Shown here piece by piece: positions 10,948 through 48,865 of a stretch of 64,000 bases of DNA. The position numbers and the translations under genes are program-made. Source of the DNA: Escherichia phage vB_EcoM_ESCO47; sequence record OM386662.1, one strand, 5' to 3'. Under the pieces are notes generated by a model that saw only the letters and a program-made list of their open reading frames with translations, was not told where the DNA came from and did no database searches. The first letter of the stretch is position 1. Each line of letters opens with the position of its first letter.

Positions 10948-11217
10948 ATGGCTAAGAAAGAAGCAGTCGAATTTAATCAAGATGTACACGGTGAAGAACT
11001 GGCGAAACTGGTCAAGGAAGCTTCCGATAATAAACTTAAAATTTCTGGGTATAACGAACTGATTAAAGACATTCGTATTCGTGCTAAAGACGAACTTGGC
11101 GTCGATGGTAAAATGTTTAATCGTTTGCTGGCTCTTTATCATAAAGATGCTCGCGATCAATTTGAAGCCGAAACCGAAGAAGTGGTGGAATTATATGACA
11201 CTGTTTTCACTAAGTGA
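10948..11217 (+). CDS. dsbA: DsbA double-stranded DNA-binding protein (late transcription enhancer)
   Basis: In-frame ATG at 10948 after SD GAGG gives 89 aa MAKKEAVEFNQDVHGEELAKL...ELYDTVFTK, matching T4 DsbA length; the track ORF starts 6 codons upstream inside the rnh stop region. Confidence 0.8.
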   Translation: MAKKEAVEFNQDVHGEELAKLVKEASDNKLKISGYNELIKDIRIRAKDELGVDGKMFNRLLALYHKDARDQFEAETEEVVELYDTVFTK

Positions 11218-11533
11218 TATTAAACCGGTCGATGAGGCCGGTCTCTCCGAAAAAGAGTTAGCGGTAAAACAAGACAAAGATGATATTGCTAAACTCCTTG
11301 ATCGCCAAGAAAATGGCTTCTTAATCGAGTCTATGGTAAATCAGTACGGTATGACTTATTTAGAAGCAACGACTGCTTTTCTGGAAGAGAACTCTATTCC
11401 TGAAACCCAGTTTGCTAAATTTATTCCATCAGGAATTATTGAAAAAATTACAAGCGAAGCCGTTGATGAGAATATGCTTCGCCCTTCAATTGCTCGCGGT
11501 GAAAAAACTAATACGTTAGATTTCTTATTATGA
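11195..11533 (+). CDS. 33: gp33 late transcription co-activator
   Basis: Internal ATG at 11195 gives 112 aa MTLFSLSDIKPVDEAGLSEKELA..., matching T4 gp33 length; stop overlaps gene 59 start (ATGA). Confidence 0.8.
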   Translation: MTLFSLSDIKPVDEAGLSEKELAVKQDKDDIAKLLDRQENGFLIESMVNQYGMTYLEATTAFLEENSIPETQFAKFIPSGIIEKITSEAVDENMLRPSIARGEKTNTLDFLL

Positions 11534-38336: not shown

Positions 38337-39456
38337 TTTTAACCTTAACTGGGTTAACAGGTTCTAACACCATTGAGTTGGTAAACATGTACAGATGAGT
38401 TTGTGAGTTGTTATTTGATAACTCATGAATAACTTCATCGACGTAAAATTCGGATTTGAATTGGTTCTTTTGGTCAACAAATATAATTTTAGTAGCAGGC
38501 GTTATGTTAAAATTACCTGTAGTAGTGCATTTAGCATATCCGTCATATTGAGCCATTGTCTGAAGACGACTTGCTTCTTCAAATCCATTACGATAGGTCA
38601 TTTCGGAATATCCACCGGATCTTGACACAACAATAGCATTATCACCATCGCCTGTAACAATAACCGGAATAGATGTATCTAAAAATGAATGAGCGAATAT
38701 CGTGGCGTTTTTAATAGGGTCTCTTGTAAATTGGTTAGCTTTAGTCATCCAGGTGAAATCCCATACTAATGGATACTCAAGCTCTTGAATATACTGACCT
38801 ACGGTATTTGGCTCGCCTACAATCATCTTAATGCCTTCCTGGCCAATAAGAGTATCGTAGTCAATCATGTTTACGCCTAAAATATCTTGCCATACGAATA
38901 CGAACTTATCACTCGCTGTAGCAAGTCCTAATTCTCTGACATATGCCAAATAATCATCAAATGTGCTTGTCCAAGGAATATCAGGAACATAAGCATTAAT
39001 AGTGTTTATTGGCGGAGTAATTAACGTACGGTCTTTATATATTACACCTAACATTTCACGTATAGATTCTCCTGCGTCCGGGAAGAACGGTCGCCCAAAT
39101 TTAAGGTTCTCTATAGAATGTATTGTTCCAAGCTCAATTGCAATAATATTGTCACCTTTTGAGTCCACAGACACAGAATAATGTCTACATCCGTAAATTC
39201 GAGTTCTAACTTGGAGAGGTGTGTTTGAATTTGAAACAGAGATTTGGACTATCTGTCTACCATCCATTTTAGTGTGGAGGTTTTTAGTGTCATAAAATTG
39301 AAGAATCCCTTCATTTCTTCCATATAGTGAATCTCGCATGGTTAAAGTTGTTATTGTTGCTGCGAGTTCAACATATCTATTTTCTTGCCAAGCCGAATAA
39401 TCTTGGTATAATTTAACACTTAAGTTAGGATATCCTGGACGTTGGAATACTGTCAT
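38284..39456 (-). CDS. 27: gp27 baseplate hub subunit
   Basis: 390-aa ORF ...[11 protein letters not shown]...[18 protein letters not shown]...; matches T4 gp27. Confidence 0.9.
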
Positions 39457-40205
39457 TTTTTATGGTCCTTTTCTACTAATGTTAAAGCAATACCACGTTC
39501 AACAGGAATCATTTGCATAATAGAATCCAATGTGTATTGACTCTTTACTAGTGAATGGTTTATCTGATAGAATGTAAAAATCTCATCAGGGTTAACTAAC
39601 AATTTAAAAACCTCTAAGATGTCAGTATATGTTTTAACATGACGTTCACAACAACATAATCTAAGGGTCAAATTAATAGGGTTCATAGAAGCAATAACCT
39701 TCTCGAGTGAGTCAATGTCTATTGCTTCTATTACTTGGATTTGGTTCTCTTCAGTCAAATCATTCCATGGGTACCATTCATCATTATAATATATTTCTTT
39801 TATGTTTTCACTTATCATTAATGCCTTGTTGTCATAAAACTTTTCAGGGAAAGAAAAACGTATTTTTATACCAGCAACATCAAGTTCAGGTTCGACTAGT
39901 TCTTTTTGATATATCTCAAATGGTGCAGTTTTTTCTTTAGAGCATTTAGGGCAAGTGAAAATAACGGGAACTTTTGTTTTGCCTATAGAGCCTGCAAAAA
40001 CTTGCAGGAATATAAATGGTTGCCATGTTTTAGGGTATTCGTTAAAATAATCATCAATCAGATCGGCAATTATTTCTTTTTGTTCTTGCGGCGAACGATG
40101 TTCGATATCATTTCTAACTAGTAAAAAGTCTCTATAATCCGCCACAGTGAACGGCTTGAAACGATGAACACCATCCGGTAATTTACAACGAATTATATTA
40201 GCCAT
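39453..40205 (-). CDS. 51: gp51 baseplate hub assembly protein
   Basis: 250-aa ORF; size matches T4 gp51; late promoter TATAAATA 18 nt upstream. Confidence 0.8.
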
Positions 40206-40222: not shown

Positions 40223-40230
40223 TATTTATA
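40223..40230 (-). promoter_or_regulatory. Late promoter TATAAATA for gene 51
   Basis: Plus-strand tatttata, 18 nt upstream of the gene 51 start, overlapping the gene 26 late promoter. Confidence 0.55.
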
Positions 40231-40234
40231 AATA
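40227..40234 (+). promoter_or_regulatory. Late promoter TATAAATA for gene 26
   Basis: tataaata 19 nt upstream of the gene 26 ATG. Confidence 0.55.
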
Positions 40235-40252: not shown

Positions 40253-40879
40253 ATGTACAAATATACGTTTACCGTACGTTTAGGCGATAAAGAAGTGAAT
40301 TGTAGAGCCTTTACTTTAAAAGAATATTTAGGACTTATAGGTGCGCGGGCTACCGGTACTATTGAATCAGCAGTGAACAATATTATCACTAATTGCTCTA
40401 ACGCTAAAAACTTGACTAAACAAGAAGCCGAGTTATTGTTGGTAAATTTGTGGGCACATTCGTTAGGTGAAGTGAATCAAGAACACACCTGGAATTGTTC
40501 CTGTGGGCATTCATTTCAAGTCTATATGAATTTATTGCACACTCAATTGGATGAACAGGCCGATCCCTGGTATTCGTTTAGTGGTATTAAAATTAAGTTC
40601 CGTCAACCTAAATTATTTGACGATAAAAATATCGCATTAATGATTGCTTCATGTATTGAGGCTGTTTTTGTCAATGGAGAGTCCATCCCTGTTGAAGATT
40701 TAACTGAAGCGGAAATAAACGACCTTTACGGCCTTATAACAGAAGATGACATGATCAATATTAAAAATCTTTTGGTATCGCCATCAATTTATCTGGCAAC
40801 CCCTATTAAATGTCCCAAATGTGGGGCGTCACACGTTCACACAATACGAGGCCTCAAAGAATTCTTTGAGTTACTATAA
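40253..40879 (+). CDS. 26: gp26 baseplate hub subunit
   Basis: 208-aa ORF, same length as T4 gp26; divergent from gene 51. Confidence 0.8.
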   Translation: MYKYTFTVRLGDKEVNCRAFTLKEYLGLIGARATGTIESAVNNIITNCSNAKNLTKQEAELLLVNLWAHSLGEVNQEHTWNCSCGHSFQVYMNLLHTQLDEQADPWYSFSGIKIKFRQPKLFDDKNIALMIASCIEAVFVNGESIPVEDLTEAEINDLYGLITEDDMINIKNLLVSPSIYLATPIKCPKCGASHVHTIRGLKEFFELL

Positions 40880-41277
40880 TGTCTAATATCAATAAACTTT
40901 ATTCAGATATCGACCCGGAAATGCGTATGGATTGGAACAAGGACGTTGCTCGTTCTTTAGGACTTCGTTCTATTAAAAATAGTCTTCTTGGCATAGTGAC
41001 AACTAGAAAAGGCTCGCGCCCCTTCGACCCTGAATTTGGATGCGATTTGGTCGACGAACTTTTCGAGAACATGACACCGCTTACAGCCGATACGATTGAG
41101 CGTAATATCCAGGCAGCAGTCCGTAACTATGAGCCGCGCATCGACAAACTTTCTGTAAGTGTAACGCCAGTATATGATGACTATACAGTTATAGTAGAGA
41201 TTAGATTTTCGGTCGTAGATAACCCTGATGATATCGAACAAATCAAACTTCAGTTAGCATCAAGCAATAGAGTGTAA
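40879..41277 (+). CDS. 25: gp25 baseplate wedge subunit
   Basis: 132-aa ORF, same length as T4 gp25. Confidence 0.85.
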   Translation: MSNINKLYSDIDPEMRMDWNKDVARSLGLRSIKNSLLGIVTTRKGSRPFDPEFGCDLVDELFENMTPLTADTIERNIQAAVRNYEPRIDKLSVSVTPVYDDYTVIVEIRFSVVDNPDDIEQIKLQLASSNRV

Positions 41278-41302
41278 TGCTTCAAGCAAAACTGTGTATA
41301 AT
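41276..41302 (+). promoter_or_regulatory. Middle promoter upstream of uvsY (MotA box aaTGCTTCA plus TATAAT)
   Basis: MotA box 41276-41284, 12-nt spacer, TGTGTATAAT ending 41302. Confidence 0.55.
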
Positions 41303-41357
41303 GGTTTTAGGTCCTTCCGATACAGCCGGGAGATTATTAGTTAAAAGAGAGAATATT

Positions 41358-41771
41358 ATGAAGCTGGAAGATTTACAGGAAGAGTTAGACGCAGACTTAG
41401 CTATTGATACGACAAAGTTGCAATATGAGACGGCGAATAATGTTAAGTTATACAGCAAATGGCTACGTAAGCACTCATTTATTCGTAAAGAAATGTTGCG
41501 TATAGAGACTCAGAAGAAAACTGCTCTAAAAGCAAGATTAGACTACTACTCGGGACGAGGTGACGGTGATGAATTCAGTATGGACCGATACGAGAAATCT
41601 GAAATGAAAACTGTCCTGGCTGCAGATAAAGATATTCTTAAGGTAGAGACATCTTTACAATACTGGGGAATTTTACTTGAGTTCTGTAGTGGTGCACTTG
41701 ACGCAGTTAAGTCTCGTAGTTTTGCACTTAAACATATCCAAGATATGAGAGCCTTTGAAGCGGGGCAATAA
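41358..41771 (+). CDS. uvsY: UvsY recombination mediator
   Basis: ATG at 41358 gives 137 aa MKLEDLQEELDADLAIDTTKLQYETANN..., matching T4 UvsY; MotA-box middle promoter at 41276..41302. Confidence 0.9.
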   Translation: MKLEDLQEELDADLAIDTTKLQYETANNVKLYSKWLRKHSFIRKEMLRIETQKKTALKARLDYYSGRGDGDEFSMDRYEKSEMKTVLAADKDILKVETSLQYWGILLEFCSGALDAVKSRSFALKHIQDMRAFEAGQ

Positions 41772-41995
41772 TGCGTTATTCAATTGAAGATGCCTTTAAT
41801 AATGATGAAGAATTTGAAACTGAAATTAAATTCTTAATGGAAAAGTATCGTCTACGTCGTCAGGATATTCGTATCCTGGCAGACCACCCTTGTGGCGAAG
41901 ACGTCCTTTATATTAAAGGGAAGTTTGCCGGGTACATCGACGAGTATTTTTATACAAAAGATATGGGTATCGATATGTGCATGCGAGTGGTATAA
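41771..41995 (+). CDS. Hypothetical protein (uvsY.-1 position)
   Basis: 74-aa ORF starting at the uvsY stop. Confidence 0.5.
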   Translation: MRYSIEDAFNNDEEFETEIKFLMEKYRLRRQDIRILADHPCGEDVLYIKGKFAGYIDEYFYTKDMGIDMCMRVV

Positions 41996-42027
41996 ATAGA
42001 TATGTAATTTCAACTTAGGAGGCAATC

Positions 42028-42195
42028 ATGTCAGATAAGATTTGTGTTGTCTGTAAAACTCCAATCGATTCTGCATTGGTTGTTGAAACAGACAAAGGTC
42101 CAGCACATCCTGGTCCTTGTTATAATTATGTCAAACAATTGCCGGTTTCAGAAAGTTCAGAAGAGCAATTGAACGAAACCCAACTTTTACTATAG
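42028..42195 (+). CDS. Hypothetical small Cys-containing protein (uvsY.-2 position; not in ORF track)
   Basis: 55-codon ORF read from sequence with strong SD AGGAGG 6 nt upstream; MSDKICVVCKTPIDS...GPCYNY (CxxC...C). Confidence 0.45.
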   Translation: MSDKICVVCKTPIDSALVVETDKGPAHPGPCYNYVKQLPVSESSEEQLNETQLLL

Positions 42196-42252
42196 TGTTA
42201 CCTTTTTTGCCTATGGTTTTTGGCCCTTCCAAAAAGGTCGGGCCTTTTTTAA

Positions 42253-42486
42253 TTAGAAGTCTTCTTCCTCATCCTCATCATCGTCGCCTTCAAGTTCGGC
42301 ACGCTTACCTGCTAAGGCATCCCTGACAGAAATATCATCTGTATCTTTTAATTCCGTTTCTTTTATACGTTTCTTATAATAAGCTTCCAATTCTTCAAGC
42401 CCTTCTAAGGTATGACAACTAGCAATTTTACCCATGAATTCGTCAATAGATGCTTCGTATAAAAATTGTTTAAATTCAAGTACCAT
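42253..42486 (-). CDS. Hypothetical acidic protein (uvsW.1 position)
   Basis: 77-aa ORF directly downstream of uvsW with SD AGGAG; acidic C-terminus. Confidence 0.55.
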   Translation of the reverse strand: MVLEFKQFLYEASIDEFMGKIASCHTLEGLEELEAYYKKRIKETELKDTDDISVRDALAGKRAELEGDDDEDEEEDF

Positions 42487-42511
42487 TTTTATCTCCTAAG
42501 GGCCGAAGCCC

Positions 42512-44026
42512 TTATAAATTAATTGTTTTCATTACATAGTTAAATTTCTCATCAGCGTAACGTTGGATACGATCAATACCGTGTTTTAACAAGTAATTAA
42601 GATGAGTATACTTCTTTTTAGTATTTAATGATTTAGGTTTTACACCTGCGTCATCGATGAGATCCCAAACTGTAGCAACAGCTTTAGAACCATGCTTACG
42701 AAGCACACGACCTACGGTTTGAAGTACGATAATTTTTGATTTAACACCATGGGCGAAAATAACATGATGAAGATTCTTGACTGAAATACCAGTAGAGAAT
42801 ACTCCATATGATGCGACAATAATAATGCCTTTACCATTTTCTGCCATGACTTTAAGCGCGTTACGTGTTTCAGTATCAACTTCACCTGATACGTAATAAA
42901 CTTTTTCGTATCCAAGCTCTTTAATAGCTTCAAATATTTCTTTACCGTGTGTAACATGTTTAAACATTACAAAGGCGTTCTCGTCTTTCTTAGCCAATTT
43001 GACTGAAAGTTGAGCAATCCACTTTGTACGTCGTTTTAGTCCGGTAATAATTTTAACTTCTTCTTGGTATGTTTTACCTTTTAATTTAATGGTGAATTCG
43101 TCCGGATAACGAAGGAAAATACTATTAATCTTAAGCTCAGTTACCTGTCCGTCTTCCATTAATTTAGACGTGCTAACAGGACGGAAGATTTCGCCGAACA
43201 TACCTACGTACTGCATTACATTGGCTTTTCCGTCTCTTAATGAGCCAGATAAACCGAATTTAAACATGCAATTATTTAATCCTGAGATGATTGAAGAAAT
43301 ACTTTTGCCTGTTGCTAAGTGGCATTCATCGTTCATCATCATACCGAACTGAGAGAACCATTCTTTAGGCTGCTTAACTACCGTTTGCCATGTGCCAACA
43401 ATAATTGGAGCGTCGTTTTTAGATTTGTCCACTTTATCAGCACCACCGCCAATTTTCTTAATCATCGAATGACTAAACAAGCGATAATCAACAAAATCAT
43501 TAGCCATCTGGGTTGTCAATGCTGTTGTAGGGACGATAATGAGAATTTTACCTTCATAGTTCTCTAGATAATACCGAGCTAAAAGTGCTTGGATTAGTGA
43601 TTTACCTGCTGATGTCGGAAGGTTTAAAATTCGACGACGATTAACTAGTCCTTCATATACTGCATCTTTTTGATACCAATGTGGTTCGATTTTGGCGTTG
43701 CCCGAATAAATTTCTTGTTTAGAAAGCCACGCGTCAAAATCTTCCCTGGTAAGGTCTTCGGTCTCAAAGATTTTAGGGTCAATCCATACAGAATAACTCA
43801 TATTGTTACAGAACTTTTTTATTTGTCCTACAAGTCCATATGGTAACAAACGATTGTAATCTAAAAGACGAATTCTACCATCCCAGTTCCCATATTTGTA
43901 ACGCGGGTTAAATTTATACCCGTCAGCTTCAAAGCTAAAAAAGTCACGAAGTTCGTAAAACGTACTTTCGTCGCATTCAATGCGAACGTGACTAAAATCA
44001 TAAAAATGTACTTTAATGTCAGTCAT
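42512..44026 (-). CDS. uvsW: UvsW DNA/RNA helicase
   Basis: 504-aa ORF with helicase motifs (LPTSAGKS Walker A, DECH box); matches T4 UvsW. Confidence 0.95.
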   Translation of the reverse strand: MTDIKVHFYDFSHVRIECDESTFYELRDFFSFEADGYKFNPRYKYGNWDGRIRLLDYNRLLPYGLVGQIKKFCNNMSYSVWIDPKIFETEDLTREDFDAWLSKQEIYSGNAKIEPHWYQKDAVYEGLVNRRRILNLPTSAGKSLIQALLARYYLENYEGKILIIVPTTALTTQMANDFVDYRLFSHSMIKKIGGGADKVDKSKNDAPIIVGTWQTVVKQPKEWFSQFGMMMNDECHLATGKSISSIISGLNNCMFKFGLSGSLRDGKANVMQYVGMFGEIFRPVSTSKLMEDGQVTELKINSIFLRYPDEFTIKLKGKTYQEEVKIITGLKRRTKWIAQLSVKLAKKDENAFVMFKHVTHGKEIFEAIKELGYEKVYYVSGEVDTETRNALKVMAENGKGIIIVASYGVFSTGISVKNLHHVIFAHGVKSKIIVLQTVGRVLRKHGSKAVATVWDLIDDAGVKPKSLNTKKKYTHLNYLLKHGIDRIQRYADEKFNYVMKTINL

Positions 44027-46548: not shown

Positions 46549-47547
46549 ATGTTTAAGAAATACAGCAGTCTTGAAAACCACTACAACTCTAAGTTTATTG
46601 AAAAACTCTACACTAATGGTTTGACTACTGGTGTTTGGGTAGCACGTGAGAAAATCCATGGGACTAACTTCTCGTTAATAATTGAACGTGACAACGTCAC
46701 ATGCGCCAAGCGCACAGGCCCTATTCTTCCAGCAGAAGATTTTTATGGTTATGAAATCGTACTCAAGAAGTATGATAGAGCTATTAAAGCCGTTCAGGAA
46801 TTCATGTACACAGCTCGAGCCGTATCATATCAAGTATTCGGTGAATTCGCTGGCGGTGGAATCCAGAAAGGTGTTGACTACGGTGAAAAAGATTTTTATG
46901 TGTTCGATATCCTTATCAATACAGAAAGTGGTGATAATACGTATTTGACCGATTACGAAATGCAAGATTTCTGTAATGAATTCGGTTTTAAAATGGCACC
47001 AATGCTTGGTCGTGGAACATTTGATGCTCTTATCACTATTCCAAACGACCTTGATTCCGTCTTAGCCGCTTATAATGCTACTGCGTCAGAAGACCTTGTC
47101 GAAGCAAATAATTGTGTATTTGATGCTAATGTTATTGGTGATAATACTACGGAAGGTTATGTTCTGAAGCCTTGTTTCCCTAAATGGCTGCCAAACGGTA
47201 CTCGTGTAGCTATTAAGTGCAAGAACTCTAAATTCAGTGAAAAGAAAAAGTCTGATAAGCCTATTAAAACTCAGGTTCCATTAACAGAAATTGACAAAAA
47301 CTTGCTTGATGTTCTAGCTTGTTATGTTACATTAAATCGTGTTAATAATGTTATTTCTAAGATTGGGACTGTAACGCCAAAAGATTTTGGCAAAGTGATG
47401 GGATTGACTGTTCAAGATATTCTGGAAGAAACTTCTCGTGAAGGTATTGTATTAACATCATCTGATAATCCGAATCTTGTTAAGAAAGAATTAGTCCGAA
47501 TGGTGCAAGATGTTCTGCGTCCTGCATGGATTGAATTAGTATCATAA
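46549..47547 (+). CDS. rnlB: RNA ligase 2
   Basis: 332-aa [24 protein letters not shown]...[17 protein letters not shown] (KxHG-type nucleotidyltransferase motif); matches T4 Rnl2. Confidence 0.9.
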
Positions 47548-47583
47548 CAAAAAAAAAAGGGACCGTAAGGTCCCTTTTTTTTT
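47548..47583. terminator. Bidirectional terminator between rnlB (plus) and gene 24 (minus)
   Basis: A11 - GGGACC-GUAA-GGUCCC - T9; U-run on both strands. Confidence 0.7.
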
Positions 47584-48865
47584 ATTCATCTATAATAATT
47601 TTAGGCAATTTAACACCGAGTAAAACAGACAAGTCCGAACGTCCTGCCATTTTATCCATGTCCCCGCCATCAATTATTCTCGCTTCTTTTTCATCTTTTG
47701 CTACTGTGTAAGGATTTGCTGATAAAGCATATCTAACCAATAATCCGATAGACGGTTGCAAGCTTTCTGGATCAACTACAACTTTAAATGCACCAACATG
47801 TTCCGGGTCATCTAAATCTACTCCTTCAGTGTATGGAGCATAAAAGATGGACCCTACAATTTCTTTTTCGCCGATATTTTCTACAACACCCACAACAACA
47901 TAATCTAACGGACTGTTGGTATCGCAGTAAAGAGGTAATCCATTTGCCAAGAATCCATAAGCATTTTGTGAAAGATACTTGTCATCTTCTGGCTTATGTT
48001 TTAACCAACCAGAAGCAGCAAGAATAGCAGCTGCACGAGCTGAGGCTACACAAAACGTTGCAGTATAAGTTGTCTCTTTTTGAATGTGTGATACCATTTC
48101 ACACACCATTCGATATAATGAACGACCTGCTTCTGGAGCGGATGCATAGCTCAAGTCAATAAATCCGGTGTCAGTAATTCCAGTAACTTTATAACGTTTC
48201 GATACAGTAATTAAAGACTGAAGAATATCTTTATTAATTTCATCAGCCATTTCAGTTGCAAGCAAATCTTCTAAGAAGTTAGGGGCATCAAATCCATTCG
48301 CTTCCAAGTCTTGCGCTAATTCAACCGTGAGACCAGTTTTAAGTTTACGGGATTTGACTGAAGTTTGCCATTTATTAATCTGGAATCTTGCATCCGCAAT
48401 TTTGCTATCAGAGCTTTCAAATTTGCTTGTTGACGCTGCGTCAGAAAATAGACGAACCTTTAAAAGAACGACTGCAATCTGAAGAGCTAACTCTAAGTCG
48501 CTTTCTTCAATATCAGCAAATGGAGTATCTTCTAACACTTTATAGACGATATTATTATATTTGAATAAATCGCCTTTATCGAGAGTTAATTTAGACTCTT
48601 CTGTTAATTCTGTGATTTGTTCTCGGTCTACATATCCAGCTTCGCCTGCATAAGTAGCACCAGTTTTAAATGTGAATTCGTTATCTGGGTTAAGATATTT
48701 GATACCATAAAAAGCAGCAACAGGTTGATTAGTTCTTTGTGTTGCTACAATGTCAGAATATATTAATTTGGTCGTAGCGCGAGTCAAAGCAACGAGATTT
48801 GGGCGACCAATTGAGTTGCTAGTAGACGTTGTAGATTCACGCAATAATTTTTGGATTTTACTCAT
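47582..48865 (-). CDS. 24: gp24 capsid vertex protein
   Basis: 427-aa ORF, same length as T4 gp24 and highly similar by inspection. Confidence 0.95.
   Translation of the reverse strand: MSKIQKLLRESTTSTSNSIGRPNLVALTRATTKLIYSDIVATQRTNQPVAAFYGIKYLNPDNEFTFKTGATYAGEAGYVDREQITELTEESKLTLDKGDLFKYNNIVYKVLEDTPFADIEESDLELALQIAVVLLKVRLFSDAASTSKFESSDSKIADARFQINKWQTSVKSRKLKTGLTVELAQDLEANGFDAPNFLEDLLATEMADEINKDILQSLITVSKRYKVTGITDTGFIDLSYASAPEAGRSLYRMVCEMVSHIQKETTYTATFCVASARAAAILAASGWLKHKPEDDKYLSQNAYGFLANGLPLYCDTNSPLDYVVVGVVENIGEKEIVGSIFYAPYTEGVDLDDPEHVGAFKVVVDPESLQPSIGLLVRYALSANPYTVAKDEKEARIIDGGDMDKMAGRSDLSVLLGVKLPKIIIDE

Follow-up and report, generated by a model that had tools for sequence, protein, structure and literature searches.

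The T4 uvsY.-2 ortholog of a Mosigvirus phage: a predicted zinc finger with a conserved C-terminal peptide, a predicted late promoter, and a probable intrinsic terminator on the uvsY strand

Results

Gene order at the uvsY.-2 locus

The window analyzed here, a stretch of 64,000 nucleotides, comes from Escherichia phage vB_EcoM_ESCO47 (OM386662.1), a Mosigvirus and RB69-like relative of T4; bases 41700-42600 are 99% identical at the DNA level to Escherichia Mosigvirus phages. The plus strand carries, in order, gp26, gp25, the gene for UvsY (PF11056), uvsY.-1, and uvsY.-2, and the convergent genes uvsW.1 and uvsW lie on the opposite strand. The convergence of the uvsY operon with uvsW had been pointed out in the original prediction, and it is there, except that the adjacent minus-strand gene is not uvsW itself but uvsW.1 (42253-42486; 77 amino acids), which was identified through Pfam UvsW-1 (PF11637, E = 9e-27) and annotations in relatives. 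A gap of 57 nt separates the stop codon of uvsY.-2 from that of uvsW.1 (42253-42255), and a terminator hairpin lies inside this gap. The uvsY(-uvsY.-1)-uvsY.-2 order facing convergent uvsW.1-uvsW is kept in Tequatrovirus, Mosigvirus, Dhakavirus, Jiaodavirus, and Tulanevirus; in Acinetobacter phage ZZ1, uvsY.-2 follows gp25 with no uvsY between them, and the context of uvsY.-2 also differs in Cronobacter phage LPCS28.

Here, as in GenBank relatives, the ORF for UvsY is given 164 amino acids (41277-41771), and the N terminus of T4 UvsY matches an ATG at 41358 (MKLEDLQEEL...). The 81 nt extra at the 5′ end of the drawn ORF (41277-41357) hold a MotA-box-like TGCTTCA (41278-41284), a 12-nt spacer, and TATAAT (41297-41302), and this pair, at 41278-41302, coincides in location with the middle promoter of T4 uvsY and with oriF. 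The start annotated for UvsY is probably too far upstream.

uvsY.-2 is a conserved coding gene

A 55-codon ORF with an AGGAGG Shine-Dalgarno sequence had been noted as unlisted in the ORF track, with the suggestion that a homology search be made against uvsY.-2-type ORFs. We located this ORF at 42028-42195 on the plus strand (ATG to TAG; 55 amino acids plus the stop codon; protein MSDKICVVCKTPIDSALVVETDKGPAHPGPCYNYVKQLPVSESSEEQLNETQLLL), and AGGAGG can be read directly at 42017-42022, 5 nt upstream of the ATG. The gene is missing from the track because it falls below the usual 60-amino-acid cutoff, and it appears when the minimum length is lowered, as in our listing of ORFs of 25 amino acids or more. 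An SD-like GGAG or GAGG lies within 20 nt of the uvsY.-2 start in 43 of 46 distinct relatives, and the SD is annotated as a ribosome-binding site in PQ480333 and PV714129.

The protein matched Pfam DUF2685 (PF10886) with 111.1 bits against a cutoff of 25 (E = 2.9e-32), residues 3-55 aligning with model positions 1-55, and it matched phrog_1043 (PHROG 1043, “unknown function”) with an E value of 8e-30; the DUF2685 model also matched all 58 diverged representatives of the family that we aligned. The T4 gene uvsY.-2 (NC_000866, 114496-114663; protein NP_049797) occupies the same genomic slot and also encodes 55 amino acids, and the two loci share the SD context and the architecture of the downstream hairpin. 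The proteins are 94.5% identical, and the few differences are conservative (A26 for V; V35-K36-Q37 for I-K-E). It is thus virtually certain that the ORF at 42028-42195 is the ortholog of T4 uvsY.-2, as had been suspected.

Conservation of the ORF, the other point raised, is extensive. With tblastn, uvsY.-2 turned up in 1250 phage records; identity exceeded 90% in Escherichia and Shigella phages, and the range extended to phages of Klebsiella, Acinetobacter, Aeromonas, and Vibrio. A HMMER search run exhaustively over 1.84 billion representative proteins returned 65 clusters at 50% identity. Almost all family members stand alone, and the representatives are 51 to 67 amino acids long (median, 56). 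Against 21 distinct 168-nt homologs, pN/pS was 0.06 to 0.46; codon positions 1, 2, and 3 varied in 33, 23, and 53 of the 55 codons, respectively. By this pattern of substitution, uvsY.-2 is a real coding gene under purifying selection. A literature search for DUF2685 found no paper naming the family.

Two database entries stand out by their hosts: the 32-kb record MG010123, named Staphylococcus phage SAJK-IND, holds a T4-type uvsY.-2 at 94.5% identity, and an NCBI protein labeled “partial [Enterococcus faecalis]” is 93% identical to UvsY.-2. Both are probably contaminated or mislabeled records.

A predicted late promoter upstream of uvsY.-2

An exact match to the T4-type late-promoter motif, TATAAATA, is found at 41991-41998 on the plus strand, where it overlaps the uvsY.-1 stop codon and begins 37 nt upstream of the uvsY.-2 ATG. 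The window holds 17 copies of this motif, compared with 7.5 ± 2.7 in shuffles. Of 46 distinct relatives, 32 have the shorter form NATAAATA no more than 60 nt before uvsY.-2 and 13 have the exact TATAAATA, and the RB69 late promoter Pl:116810 has been predicted at the equivalent place. We infer from these sequence matches that 41991-41998 is a dedicated late promoter of uvsY.-2. The gene would then be expressed early and in the middle period by read-through from the uvsY promoters and late from its own promoter; that is, it is probably expressed both by uvsY read-through and independently late in infection.

Overlapping TATAAATA motifs on opposite strands also occur at 40223-40230 (minus) and 40227-40234 (plus), in the gap between the ORFs at 39453-40205 (minus) and 40253-40879 (plus), whose places match those of T4 genes 51 and 26. 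This pair at 40223-40234 looks like two back-to-back late promoters.

The protein is a predicted zinc finger with an acidic tail

The small protein had been described as possibly zinc-ribbon-like on the strength of its CxxC motif. There is one such motif, C6-C9, and no double CxxC; the ligand pattern of the family is C-x2-C-x17-[H/C]-x3-C, so that the predicted metal-binding core spans 42043-42120 on the plus strand, comprising C6 (42043-42045), C9 (42052-42054), H27 (42106-42108), and C31 (42118-42120). In an alignment of the 58 diverged representatives, with a mean column identity of 33%, C6, C9, C31, and E42 were invariant (58/58) and K10, G24, and G29 nearly so. Position 27 was His in 56 members and Cys in the remaining 2. 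We take H27 to be a metal ligand because replacement of His by Cys, where a position does not otherwise vary, is characteristic of metal ligands.

AlphaFold2, run on the family alignment, modeled residues 1-40 with pLDDT values of 82 to 89 as a knuckle, a β-hairpin (residues 19-26), and a helix (residues 30-37) beginning at C31, and a shallower alignment gave a similar core. The model weakly resembles treble-clef zinc fingers, with fold neighbors that include eL24, TFIIE, Nob1, and YacG. The closest resemblance at the level of sequence was to the C-terminal zinc finger of Vps39/Vam6 (C-x-V-C-K-x-x-I ... G-V-V-H): zf-Vps39_C (Pfam PF10367) was matched by 7 of the 58 family members, all below the curated thresholds, and the one match of the family profile to PDB sequences, the Vps39 zinc finger 6ze9, was marginal (E = 0.009). 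A PDB search with the single UvsY.-2 sequence gave only noise. Vps39 tethers membranes in eukaryotes, and what it has in common with UvsY.-2 is probably a type of finger and not a function.

Homology to YacG, the DNA gyrase inhibitor of Escherichia coli (PDB 4tma_I), was considered and rejected. When the family was compared by hhalign with YacG, all four ligands aligned, but the probability was 3.5%, and we therefore regard the likeness as analogy rather than homology. UvsY.-2 differs from YacG in that its third ligand is His and its tail motif is different, and it has no detectable sequence homology to YacG.

Taken together, ligand conservation and the model make it quite likely that UvsY.-2 is a zinc finger. 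Its fold, as modeled, looks like a small treble clef of the CCHC type rather than the classic two-knuckle zinc ribbon, to which the original prediction had come close. Zinc binding is plausible, with conserved CCHC positions and His-to-Cys swaps in its favor. Residues 1-37 would form the small treble-clef-type finger, with one metal ion held by C6, C9, H27, and C31.

The rest of the protein is of a different character. Residues 38-55 (42139-42192) form an acidic tail with a net charge of -4 that is predicted to be disordered; pLDDT over residues 41-55 was 53 to 67 in the two models and 56 to 67 in that from the family alignment. The tail ends in a conserved C terminus, E-T-Q-L-L-L (42175-42192), for which the family alignment gives E-[TVI]-[QE]-L-L-[LMI], with L53 in 50, L54 in 49, and Q or E at position 52 in 49 of the 58 representatives. 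Every member of the family is acidic (net charge, -1 to -9; median pI, 4.5), and the finger itself has a net charge of 0 and no basic patch.

A hairpin and T tract follow uvsY.-2

Downstream of the gene, the hairpin GGCCC-tt-CC-aaaaa-GG-tc-GGGCC occupies 42222-42244. Its GGCCC/GGGCC dyad had been noticed in the original prediction and is indeed the dominant fold: GGCCC (42222-42226) pairs with GGGCC (42240-42244), an inner CC (42229-42230) pairs with GG (42236-42237), and A5 forms the loop. In plus-strand RNA this hairpin (5 + 2 bp of stem) folds at about -12 to -13 kcal/mol, the main structure having -13.2 kcal/mol and 95% of the ensemble; z-scores against shuffles were modest, -1.6 to -1.9. 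The T6 tract read directly after it, at 42245-42250, is the U tract of the plus-strand transcript.

We searched the window on both strands for stems with a folding energy of -10 kcal/mol or lower and no fewer than 5 T among the next 7 nt, and obtained 12 sites, 7 on the plus strand (one of them 42222-42244) and 5 on the minus strand, compared with 1.75 ± 1.4 on both strands of 40 dinucleotide shuffles. A generic promoter and terminator scan did not report the hairpin at 42222-42244 since the stretch enclosed by its 5-bp outer stem, which includes an internal loop, exceeds 8 nt. The “terminator” feature of PQ480333 maps onto 42222-42244, and TransTerm placed a terminator, also of 23 nt, at 116536-116558 of RB69 (Nolan et al. 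2006, PMC1524935). The element described here is the same as that predicted in T4, RB69, RB49, and others by Nolan et al. (2006, PMC1524935).

The position of the hairpin is conserved far beyond its sequence. Across 43 IMG/VR loci and GenBank relatives, a GC-rich hairpin and T run follow uvsY.-2 wherever convergent uvsW.1 is the next gene, and most relatives with the hairpin have 5 to 7 T in the first 8 nt after the stem. The place is taken by 10 different stems, each fully complementary: GGCCC/GGGCC, GCCCC/GGGGC, GCCCCTC/GAGGGGC, GGCTCTCC/GGAGAGCC, GGCCAGC/GCTGGCC, TGGGCC/GGCCCA, AAAGCCCTC/GAGGGCTTT, AGTGGAC/GTCCACT, AAAGGGACTGC/GCAGTCCCTTT, and GGGCTTCC/GGAAGCCT. Among clearly homologous stems, compensatory changes affect 3 of the 5 outer pairs and include those from GGCCC/GGGCC to GCCCC/GGGGC, GGCTC/GAGCC, and GGCCA/TGGCC. 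We took these changes straight from the stems, lined up by their ends, as three MAFFT alignments put stems of unequal length out of register; anchoring at the ends is partly circular, so the argument is carried by the shuffle control and by positional conservation. Where genes on the same strand follow uvsY.-2, in Acinetobacter and Vibrio phages, we found no comparable GC-rich hairpin and T run directly after it (loci L050 and L051 reached only -3.7 kcal/mol), and the lack of a hairpin where plus-strand genes continue fits an end-of-operon signal. On these sequence grounds, 42222-42250 is very probably an intrinsic terminator of the plus strand, whose transcripts would end at the U tract, 42245-42250. 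A literature search for 3′-end mapping of T4-like phage transcripts found none that was relevant.

The second dyad that had been proposed, A5GG with CCT6, is present as AAAAAGG (42231-42237) and CCTTTTT (42243-42249), but it is a weaker, overlapping alternative that is not conserved, and we rejected it as a functional element: it makes up under 5% of the ensemble, and neither T4 nor JS98 has it. This pairing exists only because the present lineage has an A5 loop, which can pair with the U tract; the loop is T5 in T4 and GAAA in JS98. The hairpin tip, CC-AAAAA-GG here, is the exact complement of the CC-TTTTT-GG of T4 (L003/L011), as if the tip had been inverted, and the metagenomic relative L010 has A7. 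In many relatives (loci L016-L040) an additional weak hairpin, CCA-N4-5-TGG with TTTT after it, lies 10 to 30 nt after the uvsY.-2 stop codon, upstream of the main terminator; it is degenerate here and in T4.

Discussion

The uvsY.-2 gene has figured on the T4 map for decades and is annotated in more than a thousand phage genomes, and its terminator and late promoter were predicted in 2006. The additions made here are small: the assignment of the protein to CCHC treble clefs, a conserved peptide at its C terminus, and a correction to the directionality of the terminator. In the reading that we favor, uvsY.-2 would be the last cistron of a gp25-uvsY-uvsY.-1-uvsY.-2 transcription unit that is closed by a Rho-independent terminator. 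To this package as a whole, namely, a last cistron encoding a zinc finger plus docking tail, provided with a late promoter and with a plus-strand terminator, we assign a probability of roughly 75%.

Functional data on uvsY.-2 come from one source, the CRISPRi-ART study (Nat Microbiol 2025, PMC11879866), which was all that a literature search gave. The phenotype reported there for knockdown of the T4 gene is mild: uvsY.-2 was classed as “Semi-Fit,” with a pooled score of 1.12 (KS p = 0.12) and three guides at about 2.1 to 2.3, and knockdown gave titers of 5e9 compared with 0.5-1e10 in the control, an ~2-fold reduction in efficiency of plating, and smaller plaques, a defect for which rescue by complementation in trans is reported (PMC11879866). 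In the same screen, knockdowns of uvsY, uvsW, and uvsY.-1 were classed as “Not Fit” (PMC11879866). The gene is among the few T4 genes of unassigned function with a recently reported fitness phenotype, and the conserved CCHC site and the docking-like C-terminal peptide are two simple, testable handles on it.

Three other explanations of the locus deserve to be weighed, the one with the best claim being that the hairpin is a true bidirectional intrinsic terminator, stopping both the uvsY-operon transcripts on the plus strand and the uvsW/uvsW.1 transcripts on the minus strand, which is also what had been thought likely in the original prediction. The stem is self-complementary and forms in both RNAs, being slightly more stable in that of the minus strand (-14.7 kcal/mol, z = -3.55), and it begins only 8 nt beyond the uvsW.1 stop codon. 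The text of Nolan et al. (2006, PMC1524935) calls the uvsW.1/uvsY.-2 terminator conserved and bidirectional in six genomes, and in at least one distant relative, Aeromonas phage 50AhydR13PP, the corresponding hairpin is bordered by A5 and by T-rich runs, an arrangement that could serve both strands. Against this, the two flanks of the present stem are not equivalent. The T6 tract serves the plus strand; the 5′ flank on that strand, TGGTTTTT, contains no A, and positions 42214-42221 read GGTTTTTT on the plus strand and are A-rich on the minus strand. After the stem, the uvsW.1 RNA runs AAAAACC (AAAAACCA, AAAAACCAUAGG), and none of its first 8 nt is U. In nearly all relatives, too, the 5′ flank is T-rich with 0 to 1 A in 8 nt. 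Our scan called 42222-42244 on the plus strand only, although it detected on both strands the site at 47551-47582, which we used as a positive control within the window. Finally, in the GFF of Nolan et al. (additional file 6, PMC1524935) the sites of RB69 and RB49 are assigned to the strand of uvsY.-2; other sites, such as that between genes 54 and alt.-3, carry “.” (bidirectional). Because the U tract is on the plus strand only, the bidirectional reading is unsupported by sequence and we consider it unlikely; the present sequence and the paper's own GFF both back the uvsY.-2 strand alone, and the published label is best read as unidirectional until 3′ ends are mapped. In uvsW.1 RNA the same hairpin would form without a U tract and act at most as a 3′ stability element or a weak pause; it may protect a uvsW.1 mRNA 3′ end that is made in some other way.

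The other two alternatives concern the product of the gene. That the ORF is a chance or untranslated frame, the conserved element being RNA or DNA rather than protein, could be argued from its mere 55 codons, its unassigned function, and an annotation that says only “hypothetical,” but the chance of this is negligible given the strong purifying selection at the protein level with synonymous change near saturation, the conserved SD, the retention of length and of the four ligand positions in 65 diverged representatives, the reported rescue of the T4 knockdown in trans by the protein-coding gene (PMC11879866), and the lack of any Rfam match in the region 41000-43000 at E ≤ 1. A more serious proposal is that UvsY.-2 is a nucleic-acid-binding zinc finger and a direct partner of UvsY, UvsW, or UvsW.1 in recombination, repair, or control of the oriF R-loop. 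Its place between uvsY and uvsW.1/uvsW is kept across several genera, and several of its fold neighbors (eL24, TFIIE, and Nob1) contact nucleic acids. However, synteny is weak evidence because T4-like gene order is broadly conserved, and it is broken in ZZ1 and LPCS28; the uniform acidity of the family and the uncharged finger lacking a basic patch speak against nucleic acid as the ligand; and the “Semi-Fit” class of uvsY.-2 sets it apart from uvsY, uvsW, and uvsY.-1 (PMC11879866). We regard such a role as rather improbable. A family that is acidic throughout is more likely to bind protein than nucleic acid, which returns us to the reading of UvsY.-2 as a protein binder.

Under that reading, the finger would be a scaffold and residues 38-55 a flexible acidic tail, the conserved hydrophobic tip of which, Q/E-L-L-L, would serve as a short docking peptide, so that UvsY.-2 would bind another protein and modulate or bridge it. 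Docking microproteins are commonly built in this way, from a small folded domain, an acidic flexible linker, and a hydrophobic peptide conserved at the C terminus. Precedents exist: YacG uses a zinc finger and a tail on gyrase, and gp33, gp43, and gp55 bind the gp45 clamp through their C-terminal tails. From sequence and such analogies, docking on a protein through the tail is a tentative proposal, to which we give somewhat less than even odds.

A more specific version of the proposal concerns the sliding clamp. The T4 clamp-binding tails end in ...TNTLDFLL (gp33), ...ASLDFLFG (gp43), and ...SLDFLYEAND (gp55), to which the ...NETQLLL of UvsY.-2 bears a loose likeness: in each, a flexible linker, acidic or rich in Ser, leads into five hydrophobic C-terminal residues, but UvsY.-2 has Leu in place of Phe and Thr, Val, or Ile in place of Leu. 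A pattern that was written after the sequences had been seen, [LIVMT][DEQ][FLM][LI][FLYMI] in the last 10 residues, picks out only UvsY.-2 and the gp33 homolog among the 148 ATG-initiated ORFs of at least 50 amino acids in the 64-kb window. The motif of the host β clamp is QLxLx[LF]. By sequence and analogy, UvsY.-2 could conceivably be a zinc-finger adaptor or competitor whose C-terminal peptide docks in the hydrophobic pocket of a sliding clamp (gp45 or possibly the host β clamp), a long shot in our judgment. If it were true, a late-expressed microprotein would tune the partition of the clamp among replication, late transcription, and recombination, and this would account for the smaller T4 plaques seen on uvsY.-2 knockdown.

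Two further features of the window may be recorded. The site at 47551-47582 is a textbook bidirectional intrinsic terminator, A8-GGGACC-GTAA-GGTCCC-T8, lying between the convergent ORFs 46549-47547 (plus) and 47582-48865 (minus) and having folding energies of -21 kcal/mol on one strand and -22 kcal/mol on the other (z = -8.1 and -6.7, respectively). The homolog of gp33, the late transcription coactivator, lies at 11105-11533 and ends in ...EKTNTLDFLL; its first-ATG ORF has 142 amino acids compared with 112 in T4, and its start may be further downstream.
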